IMG/VR virus record: IMGVR_UViG_3300033405_000009
DNA: 16,043 nucleotides
Strand: one strand, 5' to 3'
From: a virus
Within the stretch, counting starts at the first letter, position 1. Every line of letters starts with the position of its first letter. The notes beneath the pieces were generated by a model. The model saw nothing but the letters and a program-made list of their open reading frames with translations. It did not search any database and had not been told where the DNA came from. A program made the translations under genes and the position numbers. This document shows, one piece after another, positions 3,187 through 16,043 of the stretch.

Positions 3187-3734
3187 CAAGCCACCATGAC
3201 ACCTTCAACTAGGATGAGATCCATCATTTCGATGATCTCATCTCGAGTTACGCCGTTTTCAAATGCCGATTTCAATGCCGGTTGAATGATGTCAAGCGCC
3301 ATCTTCCTTCCATGGGCGCGCTGCTTCTTCTCCGGTTCACCTCGATTGATGTAATCCACCAACTGATCATGAAATTTCTTCCCAGCCCCATTACTGATGA
3401 TTGCCTCGAAAATGGCGTGTCCGTATCCAACTTGACCCTTCAATTTCGCTTGGAGTTCTTCGGTTCCATGCTTCTGGAAGGCATGCATGAGTTTACTATC
3501 ATAGTCGTACCAGGTACGACTATCCATGATCTCATATACTGGAAGACGCAATTCGAGCTTAGGTTCAAACGGAGGAGTTGGATCGCCTTCAAGCACGAGT
3601 CTCACCAGAATCGAAGAGCCCGTCTTATTAACAGGTCTAATACTTTTGATTGAATATCGTGCAATGGCTGCATCCACCCGTCGATACTCGGGTGTTGCCA
3701 AGATCTTGGCTCTCCATTCTGCATCCGAAAGCAT
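3186..3734 (-). CDS. Hypothetical protein (~182 aa; ATG at 3732-3734).
   Basis: GGAGGATTGATG provides a strong SD 5 nt before the ATG. The SD spans the upstream stop. Confidence 0.5.
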   Translation of the reverse strand: MLSDAEWRAKILATPEYRRVDAAIARYSIKSIRPVNKTGSSILVRLVLEGDPTPPFEPKLELRLPVYEIMDSRTWYDYDSKLMHAFQKHGTEELQAKLKGQVGYGHAIFEAIISNGAGKKFHDQLVDYINRGEPEKKQRAHGRKMALDIIQPALKSAFENGVTRDEIIEMMDLILVEGVMVA

Positions 3735-3744
3735 CAATCCTCCG

Positions 3745-4095
3745 TCATGAGTTTAGGACAGATTCCACGATAGCTCGATTCAGGCGCTCTTCGAGTGCGG
3801 CATGCGGACCGATATGGATGGTTACATATCCACGCGAACGATCTCGAAAGGCAAACAGAGTCAGAGGGACCGCGTTTTTGTGTGCCTTCACATTGCGCCG
3901 GTCCCAAATCTTGCGAAGTTCCACAACGCTGGAAGCACTAACGGATTCATCCCGGCGGAGAACATTCCACACAGGAGAATCTACGTTCCAGACTTTGCAA
4001 TTCTTGGTAACATGACGGCGAAGAGTGTCCTCCAGCAATCCGATATTCTTCACTCGATCTAGGATTCCGGCAGAGTAATCCATACACCGACTCAT
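3745..4095 (-). CDS. Hypothetical protein (116 aa)
   Basis: ORF with an ATG start 1 nt after the upstream stop (TGAAATG). Confidence 0.45.
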   Translation of the reverse strand: MSRCMDYSAGILDRVKNIGLLEDTLRRHVTKNCKVWNVDSPVWNVLRRDESVSASSVVELRKIWDRRNVKAHKNAVPLTLFAFRDRSRGYVTIHIGPHAALEERLNRAIVESVLNS

Positions 4096-4302: not shown

Positions 4303-4347
4303 TGCAGTATATGGCAGGGATCATTGCGATCCCTGCCATATACTGCA
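4303..4347. promoter_or_regulatory. Perfect hairpin with a 20-bp stem and 5-nt loop (TGCAGTATATGGCAGGGATC-attgc-GATCCCTGCCATATACTGCA). It sits between the VWA gene stop (4353) and the next gene start (4291).
   Basis: Exact inverted repeat read directly from the sequence. No U-tract follows on either strand, so it is not a canonical intrinsic terminator. It could instead be an RNase III-type processing site, a protein operator or an attenuator. Confidence 0.6.
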
Positions 4348-4352
4348 GACTA

Positions 4353-5954
4353 CTAGAGCCTGCTGTTGCGGAGCGGAGCCACGCGCCCGAAGGAGGGCTT
4401 GTACTCCTTCGACTTGCGGGTGATGACCCACACCACGTCCATCCCAGAGGGCCTGAGCTTCTCGGGGACCACGCCGCAGTCACCGTCCGTGATGATGATC
4501 ACCACGTCGAACTCCTTCCCCAACTTCTCAGGGAACTCCGCGAAGAACTGATCGAAAACCGTGCCTCCGCGGCCGACGATCTTCGTCCGCTTGATGTCGC
4601 TCTTCTGCGTGACCCTCTGCACCTCGTCCCACTTCGGCGAGGCATCGCAGCAGACCAGATGACCCTCGGTGTTGTCTCCGAGGACCTGAAGTTGGGAAAG
4701 CCCATAACGCAGATCATCGTCGCTCATGGACCCGCTCGTGTCGATCATGGCAAGCCACCGAGGCATGTGGGTGTGCCGGCGAGGCAGGTACTGCTTGGGG
4801 GTGGCATTGAGCCACCGCCGCCGCAGACGCTTCCAATCGTTCTTCATGCCGGCGTCCTGCACCTTCCGCATGAGAGCGGACCGCACGATATCGGTGAACT
4901 TGAGGGTAGGCTTGTACAGCTCCCCGAGGACATCCTCGATGTCGCTGGGAACCGACCCACGCATCGTGACAGCAGCTTGCGCTGCTCTCATGACATCGCT
5001 CATCACCTCTTCCTTGGTGACGGCCGCCTGCATGTGGGCGTCCATAGACGACAAGGGATCGTGCGAGGAGCCGCACTTGGGGCAGCTGTGGTCTCCCGGG
5101 TCTCCGTGTCCATCCCCACACTGATGGGGACCTTGCCCTTGACCACCACCAGGCTGCTGCCCGTTCTGGCCCTGTCCTTGGCCCTGTCCAGGGCTCTGGC
5201 CCTTCTGACCAGGCTTCTGCCCCTTCCCACCCTGACCCTGCTGTCCCTGGCCCTGCTTCTTCGCCTTGCCGGTCTTGGGATCCATGGAGAGAGCGCCGCA
5301 CTGAGGACACTTGCGGGGGCTCTTGTCCCAATGCTTCATGATCTCTTCGTAGATGCTCTCGGGCGAGCGCCCGTGGAGCGTCTTATCCGCGAAGACGCGG
5401 GACTTGCCGTCATCGGGGATCTCCTGCTTGCCGTCGATGAAGGCGAGGAGCTCTGCGAAGGGGAGGGCCTCACCGAGCGCACCACCCCAGAGCTTGGGAC
5501 CCTTGAAGCCGGCCTTCTCACGCGAGATCTCGATCACCGCGTTGACAACGTAGTCGATGGCCCAGTTGAAGATCCGGGGGTTCATCCCGAGCCCACGCTG
5601 GCAATGGTAGAAGATGACGTGGTAACCTTCGTGCTCCATGACGACGGGAACCTCGTCGCCGTTGAGGCTCGCGAGGAAATCCGGATGCCAGTAGAACTTC
5701 TTGCCATCCGTGGCCGCCGTGGTGAACATCCCCTTCGGGTGCCCCGGCAACTCGTCGGCCAGCTCGTGCGGCTTCGGCGCCGTCAGCGCAAAGAGGAAGG
5801 GGTTACCACCGTTCGAAGGTTGGCGGTAGAGCCGCGTCATGCAATTGGTGATCTTGGTCTGAAGCTCCGCCAAGCGGGCGTTGTCGTAGGAGCCGTCCTC
5901 CTGCTTCAACACCATGCGCGGATCCTTGAGCCGTGCTCCGATCGTCGTCATCAT
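4353..5954 (-). CDS. VWA-domain protein with an N-terminal HExxH putative metallopeptidase domain (DUF2201/vWA-MoxR-associated type; CobT/ViaA-like partner of a MoxR ATPase), 533 aa.
   Basis: HEGYH zinc-peptidase motif near aa ~110. MIDAS motif DTSGSMSD and VVIIITDGD in the C-terminal VWA domain. Central split Zn-ribbon CPQCG...CPKCG. GC-rich, ATGATG start, and motif A with GGAGG upstream. Confidence 0.75.
   Translation of the reverse strand: MMTTIGARLKDPRMVLKQEDGSYDNARLAELQTKITNCMTRLYRQPSNGGNPFLFALTAPKPHELADELPGHPKGMFTTAATDGKKFYWHPDFLASLNGDEVPVVMEHEGYHVIFYHCQRGLGMNPRIFNWAIDYVVNAVIEISREKAGFKGPKLWGGALGEALPFAELLAFIDGKQEIPDDGKSRVFADKTLHGRSPESIYEEIMKHWDKSPRKCPQCGALSMDPKTGKAKKQGQGQQGQGGKGQKPGQKGQSPGQGQGQGQNGQQPGGGQGQGPHQCGDGHGDPGDHSCPKCGSSHDPLSSMDAHMQAAVTKEEVMSDVMRAAQAAVTMRGSVPSDIEDVLGELYKPTLKFTDIVRSALMRKVQDAGMKNDWKRLRRRWLNATPKQYLPRRHTHMPRWLAMIDTSGSMSDDDLRYGLSQLQVLGDNTEGHLVCCDASPKWDEVQRVTQKSDIKRTKIVGRGGTVFDQFFAEFPEKLGKEFDVVIIITDGDCGVVPEKLRPSGMDVVWVITRKSKEYKPSFGRVAPLRNSRL
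5100..5290. repeat. Low-complexity CTGGCCCTG-type simple repeat. It encodes a GQ/PGQ-rich linker (KKQGQGQQGQGGKGQKPGQKGQSPGQGQGQGQNGQQPGGGQGQGP) inside the VWA protein, between the two CxxCG halves.
   Basis: Imperfect tandem repeats are visible in the DNA and the protein. Confidence 0.6.
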
Positions 5955-6012: not shown

Positions 6013-6237
6013 TCAGCTTTCCAAAATTGCATTTACGATAATTTCCTCACAAGTGAGACGTACAACTTTACGAACATTCCAAGCATCCGTAGCAGGGGTT
6101 CTCAAATGAACTTCCATTTGCAAATCTACCGGCGGAAGCTCAGGATTCCAAGAGGAGGATTTACAATTGGAGCAAATCCACTCGGGCGGCAAAGGTTTGC
6201 CACCGGAAATGACCCCGCGCCGCCATACATGACCCAT
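6013..6237 (-). CDS. Hypothetical small protein (74 aa), ends ...ILES.
   Basis: ORF with an ATG start. It is the first gene of the AT-rich cassette downstream of motif A. Confidence 0.35.
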   Translation of the reverse strand: MGHVWRRGVISGGKPLPPEWICSNCKSSSWNPELPPVDLQMEVHLRTPATDAWNVRKVVRLTCEEIIVNAILES

Positions 6238-6272
6238 TGATCACAGTACGCTCAGCCACGCAGGATTTCTGC

Positions 6273-6707
6273 CTATTTCTCAATGGAGAAGGCCAACTTG
6301 AGTTTATCAAATTCAAACCATGGAGGTCTTCCTCGTTGATAGTTTATGAGTAAGGCTCCGGTTCTATATAAAATGAAAACGCGAGCATGCTCTTGTGGAT
6401 TAGCGAACCACTCAGCGAACTTCCTATTCTTGTAAGAATCTCCGATCTGTGGACCTAAGAGGTCAATGTATTCCTTTGACATAGCAAAAACTTTAACGGA
6501 TGCTTTACCGTTCCATCCCATTGAACGTGCCAATCGTACTTCTTCATCATCCATATCCGGAGGAATAGCAACTACCACGGCTCCCATGCTTGTTAATCGT
6601 AGGATTCGTGTCTCATTAGGGAGAATGACGTTGCGCATGATGATGTCAATCACCTTCTGGCGCTCTTCATCATTATCCATCAAACTTGCGGGTTTGTATT
6701 CGTGCAT
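6273..6707 (-). CDS. Hypothetical protein (~144 aa; ATG at 6705-6707, TGATG overlap).
   Basis: AT-rich ORF, translationally coupled to the upstream gene. Confidence 0.45.
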   Translation of the reverse strand: MHEYKPASLMDNDEERQKVIDIIMRNVILPNETRILRLTSMGAVVVAIPPDMDDEEVRLARSMGWNGKASVKVFAMSKEYIDLLGPQIGDSYKNRKFAEWFANPQEHARVFILYRTGALLINYQRGRPPWFEFDKLKLAFSIEK

Positions 6708-6910
6708 CACGATTCCATGATTTCAAAAATCAAGAATTCTTCATCGGTCAGTTTCTTCCATTTATTGCGATTATCATTCTCGGATAGCATCGCCATAACT
6801 GAGCTTGGATGACACTCTTCACAAAAGAGATCCATTACAACAAGATCGTTCTGATAGAAGTACTCGTATCCAAATGAGGCATCCTTCTCACATCGGTCAC
6901 ATTGAACCAT
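6707..6910 (-). CDS. Small Zn-ribbon-like protein (~67 aa; CDRCEK...CEECH).
   Basis: Two CxxC pairs. ATG at 6908-6910 overlaps the upstream stop as TGATG. Confidence 0.4.
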   Translation of the reverse strand: MVQCDRCEKDASFGYEYFYQNDLVVMDLFCEECHPSSVMAMLSENDNRNKWKKLTDEEFLIFEIMES

Positions 6911-7203
6911 CAATTCTCCATAGAACTACGTACGATTTCGAGATCACACTCTGTCTCATCATGGTGCAATTTCGCTGTAGACCAGTAGAAACCACCACAT
7001 CTTGAACATGTCTCCGGACTCGCTAATCTGGGAAGGGGTGAGAGTGATTTATATTCAGGATGAGGTGGCCCATACCAAATCACCCCAACCACGATTGCAA
7101 TTAATCCGGCGATGCAAAAGACGCCTCCGAAAATCGAACGTTCAGCCGCAGCCCATGCAATACCAAACAGGAAAATTGTGAACCAAACTGAAAGAATCTT
7201 CAT
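6910..7203 (-). CDS. Small membrane protein with two predicted TM helices (ILSVWFTIFLFGIAWAAA; IFGGVFCIAGLIAIVVGVIWY) and a Cys-containing soluble C-terminus. It may be holin-like.
   Basis: Hydrophobic segments with an ATG start. The start has a 4-nt ATGA overlap with the stop of the upstream gene 7200..7586. Confidence 0.45.
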   Translation of the reverse strand: MKILSVWFTIFLFGIAWAAAERSIFGGVFCIAGLIAIVVGVIWYGPPHPEYKSLSPLPRLASPETCSRCGGFYWSTAKLHHDETECDLEIVRSSMEN

Positions 7204-7586
7204 TTGGCGCCATTCCGAATCTTAAGCACTTCTGCATGAAGCACATCCAACGCGGCTCGCGTCCGACCAAGAAGAAGAGCATCGTCCGCTGGAACTACAA
7301 CTGCTACAATCAAACGACTTCGTTTCTTTTGACGAAACCGCTGGGCTTCCTTCGGTGAAGATTTTGATTGAAGATAGAGAGGACCGACATCAGTCTCTAC
7401 TACCACATCAATCCCACAAGCATCTTCCGCTTTAGTCGCTAGACGTACGCTCGTGATCCACGCACGACCCGTGTTCAATCCCTGCGCGCCGAGTGTGGCG
7501 AGGTTTTGTACCGCATCGACAAGCCGACGCTCTGAGACTTGACCGCGCTCATTTGAGACATGCCCGAGTAGTTTAGAGACTCTCAT
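7200..7586 (-). CDS. Hypothetical protein (128 aa). GIDVVVETDVGPLYLQSK may be a PD-(D/E)xK-like motif, which is weak evidence.
   Basis: ATGA overlap with the upstream gene. Confidence 0.4.
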   Translation of the reverse strand: MRVSKLLGHVSNERGQVSERRLVDAVQNLATLGAQGLNTGRAWITSVRLATKAEDACGIDVVVETDVGPLYLQSKSSPKEAQRFRQKKRSRLIVAVVVPADDALLLGRTRAALDVLHAEVLKIRNGAK

Positions 7587-7765
7587 GTATCCAGCACCGA
7601 GCGTACAATTTCAAGAGTTGGATCTTCCAAACAATCGGATTGGACCCATTCTCGCCAGTCAAAATAATATGGGCGAAGCCCATTCATTTCGGCTTTGCAC
7701 TTAGAGCAAACATATTCATAATCCAGGTCCAGTTCCAGAACTGGTTGCCAGTCGTGCGCTGTCAT
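7583..7765 (-). CDS. Small Cys-containing protein (~60 aa, MTAHDWQPVLELDLDYEYVCSKCKAEM...). The ORF track's TTG-extended start at 7816 is less likely.
   Basis: Internal ATG. The long structured non-coding region lies upstream. Confidence 0.35.
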   Translation of the reverse strand: MTAHDWQPVLELDLDYEYVCSKCKAEMNGLRPYYFDWREWVQSDCLEDPTLEIVRSVLDT

Positions 7766-8045
7766 CCGGATTGATTTTACAGACAGACGAGAAGCCCGAA
7801 GCCGGGACCATCCCAAGCTACGGGCTTCTCTGGAGGCAACGCCATGCCTGGCGCCGACCTTCTTAGGGCCAACAGGCCCGAAATTACGAGCGGGAAATTT
7901 ACCAGTGATCTCTAGACGCCTCCCGCTCTACTAGGCGACGCCGAATCTTTCGATTCGACCCTGGGGAACCTGTAACGACCCGAGAGACGCCGGGTGATCC
8001 CATTGGCTTGCCCATCGATCACCCGTACGCGCGCGATCGAGCGAT
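7766..8045 (-). other. Highly structured non-coding region. It is a candidate ncRNA or a long regulatory 5' leader, transcribed from the motif variant at 8011-8040.
   Basis: About 230-280 bp with no ORF. It holds several perfect inverted repeats: GAGAAGCCCG...CGGGCTTCTC (10 bp), GAGCGGGA...TCCCGCTC (8 bp), CGGGTGATC...GATCACCCG, GGGCCaacaGGCCC, and a CCGAATC-tttc-GATTCG hairpin (GAAA tetraloop on the minus strand). Confidence 0.35.
8011..8040 (-). promoter_or_regulatory. Variant of the conserved motif (TAGATC-N12-GCGTAC) with no coding gene directly downstream.
   Basis: Plus strand shows CCGTACGCGCGCGATCGAGCGATCTATG. It has the same 12-nt spacing and GCGTAC box as instance F. Confidence 0.35.
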
Positions 8046-8240
8046 CTATGTAGTCTTCTTTGGCAGCCGTCGTACATTTTTGCATTTAGTGACTAAGATC
8101 ACTGAATTCATCTTGTCAGCTTTCACAGAGCACTCATCTCCGGATATTTCCATTACTTCTCCAGTGAGACTGCGGTGAGGTCCGGTTCTAATGTGAACCT
8201 TATCAGACACTTTGATGGGGACAATTGCCATACGCGCCAT
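8046..8240 (-). CDS. Small KOW-like domain protein (64 aa).
   Basis: IVPIKVSDKVHIRTGPHRSLTGEVMEISGDECSVKADKMNSVILVTKCKNV follows the KOW pattern (G-D-V-V-i--GpF-g--G-V-ev-----v-V-----------V---vek) seen in NusG C-terminus/L24-type proteins. The start overlaps the 3' end of the HNH gene. Confidence 0.35.
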   Translation of the reverse strand: MARMAIVPIKVSDKVHIRTGPHRSLTGEVMEISGDECSVKADKMNSVILVTKCKNVRRLPKKTT

Positions 8241-9117
8241 ATGAAAAATTACAATTATGGCATAGAACTCGATAACCAGTCGGGAATTTATTCTTGATCA
8301 ACCATTTCTGGAAAACGTTGCCCCTCTTGTCGATTTCCTTGCGATGATCATTTCCTCCACCGTGGATGTGATCAATCGCGAGAACATCAGTATCTTTGAC
8401 GGCACAACATGCACAAGATGGAATGGGAGCGCTGTAGTGAACTAGACATTCCATCTTGATCTTGCAATCGTAGGCATACTTTGCAAGAGCCATCTTCTTC
8501 AAGTCGACGGGATATGGCACTCCCTCGATGATTCGAGTCTTAAACGAATTAGTCTCATCCCAAATCTTGTTTTCAAAGGCTTTGCGTTGAAGTCGCAAGG
8601 ATTCTTTGCCGTTACAATTATGGCAAAGGACTCGATAACCGGGCGGGAATCCGGATTTCTCGAGCCATAGCAAATATCGCTCGGTTTTGCGACCGAGGAA
8701 CTCACGATGGATGTTGCCTCCACCCGTGATGTGATCTAGGCAGAGGAAGCGGAGCTTCAACTCCTCACACAAGAAGCACTTCGGGATTCCACCAGAGTAA
8801 ACGCCATAAACGCGAACTCTGATGTCCTCACGCCTATCCTTCATCTGCGCGAGGACGTCTTCCTTATTCTCTGCGTAATATTTGGCGTTGTACGCAGAAG
8901 CCTTATCGGGATTGGCTAGCTTGAATTGGCGGGTCTTTTCTTGACTCGCCTTCGGGTCAGCTGCGTATCGCGCCGCCCGTGCATCCTTATCACACTGGAT
9001 GCACTTGTACGTATATACGTCACGACCTTTGTAGGTATATGCCTTATATCGACGGAATCCCTCATCTAGAGATTGGATCCCATGAATACGACAAGCCCGG
9101 GTCGGTGTGTTGGTCAT
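8203..9117 (-). CDS. HNH endonuclease with two tandem HNH/Zn-finger modules (304 aa).
   Basis: Two copies of C..C...DH(I)xGGGNxHR...FPxGYRVLCHNCN: CLDHITGGGNIHREF...RVLCHNCN and AIDHIHGGGNDHRKE...RVLCHNCN. The gene is AT-rich. It is a paralog of gene 12453..13115. Confidence 0.75.
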   Translation of the reverse strand: MTNTPTRACRIHGIQSLDEGFRRYKAYTYKGRDVYTYKCIQCDKDARAARYAADPKASQEKTRQFKLANPDKASAYNAKYYAENKEDVLAQMKDRREDIRVRVYGVYSGGIPKCFLCEELKLRFLCLDHITGGGNIHREFLGRKTERYLLWLEKSGFPPGYRVLCHNCNGKESLRLQRKAFENKIWDETNSFKTRIIEGVPYPVDLKKMALAKYAYDCKIKMECLVHYSAPIPSCACCAVKDTDVLAIDHIHGGGNDHRKEIDKRGNVFQKWLIKNKFPTGYRVLCHNCNFSYGAYGNCPHQSV

Positions 9118-9147
9118 GCTGAGAACCTAACACCAACCCGGGCTTGT
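9091..9147 (-). promoter_or_regulatory. Long imperfect hairpin that encloses the HNH start codon and SD (ACAAGCCCGGGT(T/C)GGTGTT...loop with AGGTTCTCAGCATGACC...AACACCGACCCGGGCTTGT).
   Basis: 12 perfect bp plus 5 more bp of stem seen in the sequence. The ATG at 9115-9117 lies in the loop. The hairpin sits 20 nt after the MoxR stop. Confidence 0.55.
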
Positions 9148-9168: not shown

Positions 9169-10287
9169 TCACTCGTCCTTCATCGCCTGACGAATTTTGA
9201 GGAATGCCTCCATGAACGGGGCCACCTTCGTGAGCTTGTGGTCCTGAATCATCTTCATGTTCATGACGCTCTTCGCAGCACCGATGCAGAACTCCGAGGG
9301 GAGCTTGCGGAGCCACCCGAACACGTTGTCCGTGGTCTTGTGGAGCTTACGCTCGTGCGCCTCCTTGTCGGAGCCGGAGGGCGTCACGCGGCAGAGGGCC
9401 GCCACGGCGTTCACGGCGGAGATGGCGCAAACGAACTGGCGATCGATCTCCATCTTGTCGAGATCGGGGTGCTTGCCCTCGCGGACCAGCGCCTCGATGA
9501 GCGGCTCGATGTGGCGGTAGTGCTCCAGCCACACCTTGAACTTGACCGCGGAAGCCATCCCCACGCGACCCGCCACCAGCATCGTCTGGAAGTCGACACT
9601 GGAGAGGTGGCGCTCCGAGCCGTTGGTGAAGTCCAGGTCCTTCGCCGCCAAAGTCCACGCGCGAGGCGAGGGGTGGCAATACGCCGTGGAGTCGCCCTCG
9701 GGCGGGGGCATCAGGAGCTGCTCCTGATTCTTGCTGAGGAACCCGACGATGAGGGGGTTGACCCCTGCGCCCGTGGCCCACTCCTGCCACGGCTCGAAGG
9801 CGTGCGTCACGCGGTAGACGCCGCACCGATTGGTGAGGGCGTGCGAGACGGGGAGCGAGAAGGCACCCTCGTCAGGCAGGTTGCCCGTCGCGATGACCGC
9901 GTGGATGTTCATCTTGCGACCGTTCATCGCACGGAACTGGAACAGCTCGAGGCAGGGGTTCTGCAGCTCGGGCTTGGCCTTATCCACCTCGTCCACGAGG
10001 AGGATCACCGGCCGCTCGTCCTTGTTGTAGAGCGGGATGGTCTCCGGCGGAGCATAGGTCGTCTTGCCGTTCTCCACGAGAGGCAGACCGATCATGTCGG
10101 GTGCCTCCAGGACGGAGAGGTTGAGGTAGACGTAGCGAAACTTCTCGTTCTCGCACGCCTGCATGGCCATCTCGGTCTTGCCGATACCGGCCGGGCCGAA
10201 GGTCATGAGATTGCCCCCGGTCCGAATCGTGAACTGCAGCACCTTCATGAGGTGCGCCTGATCGAGCTCCGTAACACCAGTTAGCAT
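9169..10287 (-). CDS. MoxR-family (AAA_5) AAA+ ATPase, CobS/RavA-like (372 aa).
   Basis: Walker A FGPAGIGKTEMA. Walker B VILLVDEVDKA. Sensor-1-like HAVIATGN. The length and single-AAA architecture are typical of the MoxR/CobS class. GC-rich, with motif C and GGAGG upstream. Confidence 0.75.
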   Translation of the reverse strand: MLTGVTELDQAHLMKVLQFTIRTGGNLMTFGPAGIGKTEMAMQACENEKFRYVYLNLSVLEAPDMIGLPLVENGKTTYAPPETIPLYNKDERPVILLVDEVDKAKPELQNPCLELFQFRAMNGRKMNIHAVIATGNLPDEGAFSLPVSHALTNRCGVYRVTHAFEPWQEWATGAGVNPLIVGFLSKNQEQLLMPPPEGDSTAYCHPSPRAWTLAAKDLDFTNGSERHLSSVDFQTMLVAGRVGMASAVKFKVWLEHYRHIEPLIEALVREGKHPDLDKMEIDRQFVCAISAVNAVAALCRVTPSGSDKEAHERKLHKTTDNVFGWLRKLPSEFCIGAAKSVMNMKMIQDHKLTKVAPFMEAFLKIRQAMKDE

Positions 10288-10385: not shown

Positions 10386-10568
10386 TCACGACTCCATTAC
10401 CTTGGAAACAATTGCATCTTCACAAGTGGGATTGATTTTGAGCCAAGCTTGAGCCGAAGGACTCCAATTGTCACCATGCTTATTCCACTTGAGCCAGGAA
10501 TCGCACCAGCTACAGTGATAAGTCACCTGGTCATCCTGCGAGTATTGGTACCCCCAAGTATGTTCCAT
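10386..10568 (-). CDS. Small Cys/Trp-rich protein (~60 aa, MEHTWGYQYSQDDQVTYHCSWCDSW...), ends ...VMES.
   Basis: The ATG sits 1 nt after the upstream stop (ATGGAGTCCTGAGATGG). The SD is embedded in the upstream gene's last codons. Confidence 0.4.
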   Translation of the reverse strand: MEHTWGYQYSQDDQVTYHCSWCDSWLKWNKHGDNWSPSAQAWLKINPTCEDAIVSKVMES

Positions 10569-10569
10569 C

Positions 10570-10779
10570 TCAGGACTCCATAACCGTTGCCACAACGTGG
10601 GCTTTATGAAGTTCTCCAATTCGTTCAAACCAAGGTGAAATGTCCATCCCGCGACGGAAAGCGATGGCTCTCAATTTCTCAATATCTGCCGTAGTGGGAT
10701 TGGCTTCCATCTTTGAAATCAATTTCTCAAAAGCAGGAGTCTTCCAGTCCCGATCTTTAGGAGATCTCTGCCGGCTCAC
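10570..10779 (-). CDS. Hypothetical small protein (69 aa), ends ...VMES.
   Basis: ORF with an ATG start. Confidence 0.35.
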   Translation of the reverse strand: MSRQRSPKDRDWKTPAFEKLISKMEANPTTADIEKLRAIAFRRGMDISPWFERIGELHKAHVVATVMES

Positions 10780-12371: not shown

Positions 12372-12396
12372 ATACGCGCCGATCCGCGAGATTTTT
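12372..12396 (-). promoter_or_regulatory. Conserved promoter/leader motif, instance D: AAAATC-N12-GCGCGTATT-N8-GGAGG-N8-ATG.
   Basis: Plus strand shows AATACGCGCCGATCCGCGAGATTTT. It lies in a divergent intergenic region that also feeds the plus-strand HNH gene. Confidence 0.5.
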
Positions 12397-15853: not shown

Positions 15854-16043
15854 TCAATTGCCAAACAGCCAGAATGGCACCTGAACGGTCGAACCCGGCG
15901 TAGCCTTGGTGTTGATGCTGAGGCTTGTTACGGGCTCCGAAGCCGCTGCAAGTGGGAGTGCAATCATCACAAGGCTGTTCGTGGAAATAGCGAAGTTATC
16001 TGCCACAGACCCGTTGATGCGAACTCCAAGGTCCATTCCCGTC
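15854..16043 (-). CDS. Possible 3' end of a longer gene that runs off the window (it ends ...TVQVPFWLFGN at 15854).
   Basis: The ORF track shows 15854..16036. The frame probably stays open to the window edge. The sequence is Ser/Thr/Ala-rich and looks like a structural protein. Confidence 0.25.
   Translation of the reverse strand, partial: TGMDLGVRINGSVADNFAISTNSLVMIALPLAAASEPVTSLSINTKATPGSTVQVPFWLFGN

Follow-up and report, generated by a model that had tools for sequence, protein, structure and literature searches.

The nut/boxB sites of phage lambda and the put sites of phage HK022 are short elements of about 15–70 nt, with one or two hairpins, that are found at each regulated operon. Another association of promoters with stem-loops is that of the promoter early stem-loop (PeSL) units, short composite terminator/promoter units that are repeated around T4-type genomes and in which the stem-loop lies ahead of the promoter (PMC2839356, Arbiol et al. 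2010; PMC4122927, Comeau et al. 2014). The element described here is a 280-base gene-free stretch with six stable local hairpins, read 8045..7766 on the minus strand of IMGVR_UViG_3300033405_000009; coordinates are those of the 16,043-nt window, the whole stretch of DNA that was analysed. It is real, non-coding, strongly structured, headed by a promoter, of unknown family, and specific to one phage lineage. The reading tentatively preferred, with a confidence that falls somewhat short of even, is that of a cis-acting structured 5' leader or attenuator for the p60-p128-p97-p68-p145 operon (7765..6273), whose first gene, p60, adjoins the element. The phage is uncultivated and comes from metagenomes only, having been recovered near-identically from JGI 3300034091, ENA ERZ27256985, and Logan SRR9711196 (loci L003–L005).

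No coding signal was found in the element. Its codon log-odds are negative in all three minus-strand frames, and its GC content is 0.55–0.63 at every codon position, versus 0.25–0.48 at the second position in real genes of this phage. A Pfam search with all of its open reading frame (ORF) fragments gave no match, and on these two negative results a pseudogene or small-protein reading was rejected. The preliminary description, made from the letters alone, had called the region ORF-free and non-coding, and this is borne out. It had also called it the only sizable non-coding stretch, which holds in part: by the depositors' gene calls, the element lies in the largest uncalled gap in 20 kb of this phage (L003 9384-9822, 438 nt; 280 nt if an uncalled KOW-like ORF at 8240..8046 is real), but further gaps of 215–282 nt are present in the same 20 kb. 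The overall GC content of the element, 0.57–0.60, is higher than that of the surrounding island genes.

Five hairpins had been proposed on the minus strand; all five are present where they had been placed, and a sixth, H5, is added here. The local helices have mean pair probabilities of 0.79–1.00, with values of at least 0.84 for all except the 3-bp outer AGG/CCU stem of H5. From 5' to 3', the promoter motif and the parts of the element are the following.

8025..8048, minus strand: promoter-type motif TAGATC-N12-GCGTAC, an exact match (0 mismatches), overlapping the TAG stop codon of the KOW-like ORF.
7991..8025, minus strand: hairpin H1, a 9-bp stem CGGGUGAUC/GAUCACCCG (8025-8017/7999-7991) with a 17-nt loop that contains a 3-bp inner stem; pair probability 0.96.
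7960..7990, minus strand: linker GCGUCUCUCGGGUCGUUACAGGUUCCCCAGG, which in the minimum free energy (MFE) structure pairs long-range with 7787..7761 and so covers the p60 AUG.
7940..7959, minus strand: hairpin H2, an 8-bp stem GUCGAAUC-GAAA-GAUUCGGC, the GAAA being a GNRA tetraloop; pair probability 0.93.
7888..7928, minus strand: hairpin H3, a 10-bp outer stem GAGCGGGAGG/UUUCCCGCUC (7928-7919/7897-7888), internal loops, a 4-bp inner CUAG/CUGG stem, and the loop AGAUCA; pair probabilities 0.96 and 0.99.
7866..7879, minus strand: hairpin H4, GGGCC-UGUU-GGCCC, followed by UAAGAAGG; pair probability 0.97.
7834..7860, minus strand: hairpin H5, a stem of 3 + 8 bp, CGGCGCCA-GGCA-UGGCGUUG at 7856-7837, with two G.U pairs; pair probability 0.79–0.84.
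7789..7830, minus strand: hairpin H6, GAGAAGCCCG/CGGGCUUCUC (7830-7821/7798-7789), extended to about 18 bp, near-perfect, with a UGG loop; pair probability 0.84–1.00.
7763..7788, minus strand: 3' tail GUCUGUCUGUAAAAUCAAUCCGG and the AUG of p60, with no GGAGG ribosome-binding site.

The fold has an MFE of -132.4 kcal/mol for 8050..7760 (291 nt; z -4.70), and the 260 nt of 8029..7770 reach z -5.08; in each case 0 of 200 dinucleotide shuffles were as stable. By folding z the element ranks first among 244 minus-strand windows of 260 nt, with boundaries that were fitted by choice while those of the other windows were not. The runner-up scored z -4.23 on re-test with 200 shuffles, and the genome background has a mean z of about -1.2. 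The excess of structure over chance is real but not extreme. As to the strand, seven of the 68 helix pairs of the minus-strand fold are G.U, for which the plus strand would have A.C, and the minus-strand MFE is lower than the plus-strand MFE by 16 kcal/mol. This stability and the seven G.U pairs, taken together with the gene orientation and the promoter, favour a minus-strand RNA.

Hairpins H1–H6 have no other copy in 20 kb of this phage, where only the promoter core ATCGCGCGCGTA(C) recurs, and they are thus not stacked copies of a dispersed stem-loop module. H6 has no U tract; it could be an attenuator, a terminator or a processing site, or else a stabiliser of the upstream 3' end. The loop region of H3, GAUCACUGGUA, has an alternative pairing with UACGGGUGAUC at 8027-8017 (inverted repeat I3, 82% complementary). 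The hexamer GGCGUC occurs three times within 77 nt (7915-7991, minus strand), directly 3' of H1, directly 3' of H2, and inside H3. Six copies exist on the minus strand across the 16 kb, and the clustering is marginally significant once all hexamers are counted.

The motif at the head of the element had been described as a variant of a conserved promoter motif, and this stands: the exact match at 8048..8025 falls within the ordinary variation of the family-wide A[AG][AG]TY-N11-13-GCGTAY. Eight copies of the family motif are found in the window between 604 and 12394, ending at 12377, 10315, 8030, 6251, 5976, 2028, 1084, and 604, all on the coding (minus) strand, versus 0.6 in shuffled sequences. 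Among relatives, loci L008, L015, and L019 have 10 copies apiece (up to 10 per 21 kb versus 0.5–0.8 in shuffles), several copies are also found in others, including L017, L009, and L016, and L015 and L019 often show the AGATC...GCGTAC form. The overall density is 8–10 copies per 21 kb versus about 0.6 by chance. The motif is kept across jumbo phages whose ATPases are only 50–73% identical. The full module reads A[AG][AG]TY-N12-GCGTAY-N7-9 (often with GATC)-GGAGGTGA-N4-7-ATG: GGAGG(TGA) stands 7–9 nt past the motif and is followed by ATG in about 40 of about 55 copies, and the copy of the element is among the few without it. The motif is therefore a conserved promoter and short-leader module, genuine for this phage group. 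The CGTA core and the short spacing resemble promoters of the extracytoplasmic function (ECF) type rather than sigma-70 promoters, and they suggest an ECF-like or phage-specific sigma factor. This family-wide consensus is the firmest new result of the analysis and is useful by itself for annotating transcription units in these genomes.

The copy that heads the element is typical but for one thing: structured RNA of about 255 nt stands in place of the ribosome-binding site and start codon. Other copies also lack the Shine-Dalgarno sequence. The one at 15898 of L008 is followed by 260 ORF-free nucleotides that are unstructured (z -1.24), and the region that follows the one at 3387 of L019 has a tRNA-like element on the other strand. 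This part of L019 (about 3600-3760, minus strand) is ORF-free and follows two promoter copies that lack a Shine-Dalgarno sequence; its opposite strand carries a perfect T-arm sequence, GGGGTTCGAATCCCC, with a long acceptor-like stem to close it. No tRNA or transfer-messenger RNA (tmRNA) was called by ARAGORN or Rfam at L019 3600-3760, which from its sequence may be an unusual or interrupted tRNA-like gene.

The element thus lies where structured leaders lie, between a promoter and the first gene of an operon and on the coding strand, and it is non-coding and structured. We infer that minus-strand transcription would start from its own phage-type promoter (8048..8025), giving an RNA of about 255 nt whose five or six hairpins would fill the slot that usually holds GGAGG and ATG. 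H6 would then stand 23 nt ahead of the p60 start codon, which has no ribosome-binding site. No copy of the motif is found between 8030 and 6251 and the five genes of the operon overlap, so that the operon, with no evident promoter of its own, must be transcribed through the element, H6 included. The leader would limit or time expression of the operon, with H6 as a partial terminator or processing site, and/or with the pairing of 7988-7960 and 7787-7761 occluding the AUG, and its effect could be tuned by a hairpin-binding factor from the phage or the host. A leader explains most economically the layout of promoter, hairpins, H6, an AUG without Shine-Dalgarno sequence, and a translationally coupled operon.

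Several points weigh against a leader. The pairing that would hide the AUG has a probability of only 0.2–0.57, and it is broken by a natural single-nucleotide polymorphism: the sole difference between the window and contig L005 over 11,569 nt is at position 7974, where a U of the RNA becomes C. It falls in the H1–H2 linker, which lies outside the local helices and would lose one long-range pair. Part of H1 may precede the transcription start. Were that start about 7 nt beyond GCGTAC, the 5' arm of H1 would be left out and H1 would not form in the RNA; the remainder still folds (z -4.18). Read-through from upstream, out of the promoter of the ATPase gene, could likewise feed the operon. A near-copy of the motif, AAATC-N13-GCGCAC, at 7780..7757 could be a sign that the operon formerly had a promoter of its own. 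This near-copy, read from the sequence, has one core mismatch and overlaps the ATG of p60, and so could not serve p60. The plus strand also folds well (z -5.55), and folding energy alone therefore does not fix the strand. Finally, no homologue of the element was found in any of the collections searched, which leaves it without comparative support from conservation or covariation.

The 4227 covariance models of Rfam 15 were run at the gathering score and at E<=10 on the 16 kb, on 3.5 kb, and on 321 nt. Such a search had been proposed as a check in the preliminary description, and it matched no known RNA family at any setting: the whole window gave 0 matches at the gathering score, and E<=10 added only generic hairpin matches to miRNA models, of at most 21 bits. 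ARAGORN found 0 tRNA or tmRNA genes in the window, and neither RF00005 nor the tmRNA models gave a match at E<=10. The same library finds a group I intron, tRNAs, and a wcaG RNA in related loci. In L011, a 258-nt group I intron (3379-3636, minus strand; RF00028, 65 bits, E 2e-16) lies beside a tRNA-Lys gene, and L012 carries a wcaG RNA (5601-5691, minus strand, 44 bits) and tRNA arrays of up to 8 genes (L012 3058-6557) a few kb from the ATPase gene. Resemblances to RNase P, signal recognition particle, and T-box RNAs (CCCGGCUU, AAGGUCGG) were dropped, since Rfam gives nothing and the P4 pairing that would be needed cannot form.

BLASTN of 3.3 kb against 50,697 phage records gave no match, and nhmmer of the element against the related loci matched only the identical contigs. 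A covariance model of the element, R1 (251 positions, 68 bp), found only itself over 315 kb of related jumbo-phage loci. A few loop-and-junction DNA patterns, exact and gapped, gave 0 and 0 matches in viral contigs and 0 in genome contigs; their 3 matches in metagenome contigs were all AT-rich chance matches and were rejected by R1. The neighbouring genes fared similarly: p128 has one 55%-identical homologue, on a 1.8-kb contig without the upstream region, a search with p60 found none beyond itself, and the protein of the nearby HNH endonuclease gene, used as an anchor, gave a remote match only. The element and its neighbouring genes are, by these searches, apparent orphans.

The genes around the element are all on the minus strand, in the order AAA+ (MoxR-like) ATPase (10287..9169), HNH endonuclease, KOW-like ORF, the gap 8045..7766, p60-p128-p97-p68-p145, p74, and DUF2201/VWA (5954..4353). 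Three of them deserve a closer description.

8203..9117, minus strand: HNH/EndoVII-like endonuclease gene, free-standing and tandem, assigned to the PHROG classes HNH endonuclease and endonuclease VII.
8046..8240, minus strand: KOW-like ORF of 64 aa, directly upstream of the element, uncalled by the depositors; the first three letters of the promoter motif are its stop codon.
7583..7765, minus strand: p60, a small CxxC protein gene, first of the operon, called by JGI.

The ATPase is full length against 37 homologues. It has hundreds of homologues, the closest 73% identical, on contigs of 180–436 kb, which places the phage in a jumbo-phage lineage; by TBLASTN the nearest cultured relatives of this protein are only N4-like gp24 ATPases, at 25% identity. 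In twelve related loci both this ATPase gene and the DUF2201 gene are conserved. The stretch that separates them there measures anywhere between 45 nt and 3.8 kb and has no gene in common with the window. GC content at the third codon position (GC3) is 0.82–0.89 in the core ATPase (9169-10287) and DUF2201 (4353-5954) genes versus 0.40–0.52 in the island between them (6013-9117), which suggests that the island is of foreign or recent origin. The setting of the element, between two conserved genes, is therefore a hypervariable (hyperplastic) island into which a homing endonuclease has moved.

The HNH protein (304 aa) is a tandem duplication of an EndoVII/HNH-like module (CxxC ... DH[IH]xGGGN ... 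GYRVLCHNCN), with paralogues in the same phage at 12453-13115 (plus strand) and at L003 787-1290. Its homologues in relatives occupy varying positions around the ATPase and DUF2201 genes. It fits, from these sequence features, free-standing homing endonucleases, and the gene marks the region as an insertion hotspot for mobile genes. The HNH gene has no Shine-Dalgarno sequence, and an 18-bp hairpin, ACAAGCCCGGGUUGGUGU/ACACACCGACCCGGGCUUGU (9090-9145, minus strand), encloses its ATG (9117), which recalls the hairpin-masked starts of T4 homing-endonuclease genes. A 20-bp perfect hairpin without U tract (4305-4347, minus strand) directly follows the DUF2201 stop codon, with the depositors' next start codon in its loop. 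Long hairpins without a U tract thus recur at cistron boundaries, after the p533 stop codon and around the HNH start, and H6 is of the same style.

The KOW-like ORF overlaps the 3' end of the HNH gene. Its codon score is positive in frame and negative off frame; it matches Pfam KOW7_SPT5 at E 5e-5, below the gathering score, with weak PDB matches to the KOW domains of Spt5, uL24, and NusG, and no homologue was found in a collection of 5.8 billion proteins. KOW domains act in transcription elongation and termination, which makes this ORF an intriguing neighbour for a promoter-proximal RNA; a functional link between the two would be speculative.

On the other side of the element, the operon (7765..6273) consists of five small genes that overlap start-to-stop, and p60 is a complete member of a family of 60–97 aa paralogues. 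The proteins p60, p97, p68, p80, and p69 (6707-7765 and 10386-10779, minus strand) have common CxxC motifs and a similar C-terminal tail (...IVRSVLDT, ...IVRSSMEN, ...IFEIMES, ...IVSKVMES, and ...VATVMES). The stretch encoding this tail coincides with the GGAG ribosome-binding site and the overlapping start of the next gene. Elsewhere in the window, positions 15884-15959 differ from the near-identical L003 and L004 by twenty substitutions in 76 nt, mostly at every third base, which looks like a short recombinant patch from a divergent allele.

The preliminary description had left open whether the region is a phage non-coding RNA (ncRNA), a structured regulatory leader of the gene at 7583..7765, or an origin or packaging-related site. 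The first two fit the evidence and the last has nothing in favour of it as an origin or packaging site. A free-standing ncRNA of about 230–250 nt, which would share the promoter, have its end or a processing site at H6, and act in trans as a protein sponge or decoy, a guide, or a compact GAAA-tetraloop RNA, is possible but doubtful. A promoter, a multi-hairpin body, and a strong 3' hairpin are the layout of an independent RNA gene, and the GC content above that of the island genes agrees with one, but efficient termination at H6 would leave the five downstream genes without a promoter. An ncRNA would also have to be one with no Rfam family and no second copy in the 315 kb of related phages or the scanned collections. 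The GNRA tetraloop could find a partner in CCUAAG at the base of H4, which corresponds to one half of the classical 11-nt receptor. A canonical GAAA receptor of 11 nt was rejected, since the opposite strand reads UUCGG and not UAUGG. The three GGCGUC hexamers each lie beside a helix, but the significance of their clustering is marginal. It is quite improbable that the element founds a new class, a compact phage RNA of about 230 nt with six helices, a GNRA tetraloop with a possible docking site, and a function in trans, travelling in a mobile, HNH-invaded island of jumbo phages. Such an RNA might act by sequestering a host or phage protein, perhaps the adjacent KOW protein or a termination factor, or by catalysis. 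The element could instead be a functionless or hitch-hiking structured remnant of the turnover of mobile cassettes in a hyperplastic region, which is unlikely; examples would be a promoter deprived of its gene and brought up against remaining terminator hairpins, or the 3' untranslated region of an ATPase-HNH-KOW unit. The variable interval between the ATPase and DUF2201 genes, with no genes common to relatives and the window, the HNH genes scattered around it, the GC3 of the island (0.4–0.5 against 0.82–0.89 in the flanking core genes), and the orphan status of the element and its neighbours all suit a remnant. Stacked terminators, however, would not call for six stable helices in a row with G.U pairs and a GNRA loop. 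Copies of a dispersed stem-loop module would recur, and none of the hairpins does so in 20 kb; they also follow the promoter rather than precede it.

The element is highly unlikely to be a site acting at the DNA level, such as an origin of replication, a site for packaging, an operator, or a hairpin-type promoter in which the inverted repeat of H1 straddles the start. In favour of such a site, the plus strand folds almost equally well, the 9-bp inverted repeat of H1 is perfect and overlaps the likely start site, and six GATC lie in 7801-8100. This GATC count is merely tied for the top 300-nt bin, and GATC belongs to the initial transcribed region in the promoter consensus, which largely accounts for the local excess; GATC clustering was accordingly rejected as an origin or packaging signal. 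Moreover, seven helix positions pair only as G.U in a minus-strand RNA, there are no iterons, direct repeats or AT-rich unwinding element, the cumulative GC skew has no turn and gene orientation is unchanged, and no terminase gene lies nearby in the DNA examined. A small or degenerate self-splicing group I intron tied to the adjacent HNH gene, possibly joining the KOW-like ORF to p60, is exceedingly improbable. A size of about 250–280 nt, the adjoining HNH gene, the GAAA tetraloop, motifs vaguely like R and S elements (GUCUAGAGAUCAC, UAAGAAGGUCGG), and the true 258-nt intron of a relative all recall one. RF00028, however, has no match at E<=10 on the 321 nt, and since the same library detects the L011 intron at 65 bits, a typical group I intron here would very likely be detected. 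From the sequence, neither a P3/P7 pseudoknot nor a P4-P6 domain can be placed in the order that is needed, and the element interrupts nothing: the ATPase is full length, p60 is complete, the KOW-like ORF has its own stop codon, and the element lies between genes.

Among giant phages known only from metagenomes, orphan regions are many and described regulatory RNAs very few. The element offers a concrete, testable example, in which a family promoter whose leader is usually minimal would drive a multi-hairpin RNA of 255 nt ahead of small zinc-ribbon-like genes without a ribosome-binding site, with a homing endonuclease and a free KOW domain as neighbours. A regulatory role, if it has one, would illustrate how phages of this sort control the expression of recently acquired cargo genes. 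As a lineage-specific singleton without comparative support it is a lead, not a discovery, and the fitting label is that of a structured leader or ncRNA of a phage, new and unverified.

Compared with known systems, the element shows partial likenesses to several. The HEARO or omega-RNA of IscB-type HNH nucleases is also a structured RNA beside a gene with an HNH domain. The element, however, has no Rfam HEARO match and lies downstream of the ORF instead of upstream of, or overlapping, its start; the HNH protein here is of the tandem EndoVII-like homing type and has no RuvC domain, and other HNH copies in the same phage have no such RNA beside them. With group I introns that are associated with HNH genes, the element shares a similar size, a GNRA tetraloop, an HNH neighbour, and a phage group in which true introns occur, but the covariance model does not match it, no gene is interrupted by it, and a P3-P7 core is absent. 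Type III toxin-antitoxin systems (ToxIN-like) have the same order of promoter, non-coding RNA, strong hairpin, and protein genes, but the element has no tandem direct repeats, only one 9-nt direct repeat in two copies. A ToxI-like antitoxin was rejected: there are no tandem direct repeats of about 34–36 nt, PADLOC gave no defence-system match for p60 or p128, and Pfam gave none to ToxN-type toxins.

Leaders of the nut, put, and attenuator kind also show likenesses. As in these, hairpins directly follow a phage promoter and stand ahead of genes, with a strong hairpin before the first of them, and a small NusG/Spt5-like KOW ORF adjoins the element. The difference is that here there is one single and much larger element, with no downstream terminators identified. 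With the PeSL units, finally, the locus shares a short conserved promoter motif and stem-loops at the borders of small, variable, mostly orphan genes between conserved core genes, and in each case there is a connection with indels and gene shuffling. The present phages are not related to T4. The promoter motif recurs at gene borders in variable regions as in PeSL units, which shows an analogy of arrangement and not homology with the T4-type units, but the stem-loop is not repeated at several loci, only the promoter core being so, and what follows the promoter here is about 255 nt of six unique, unrepeated hairpins.

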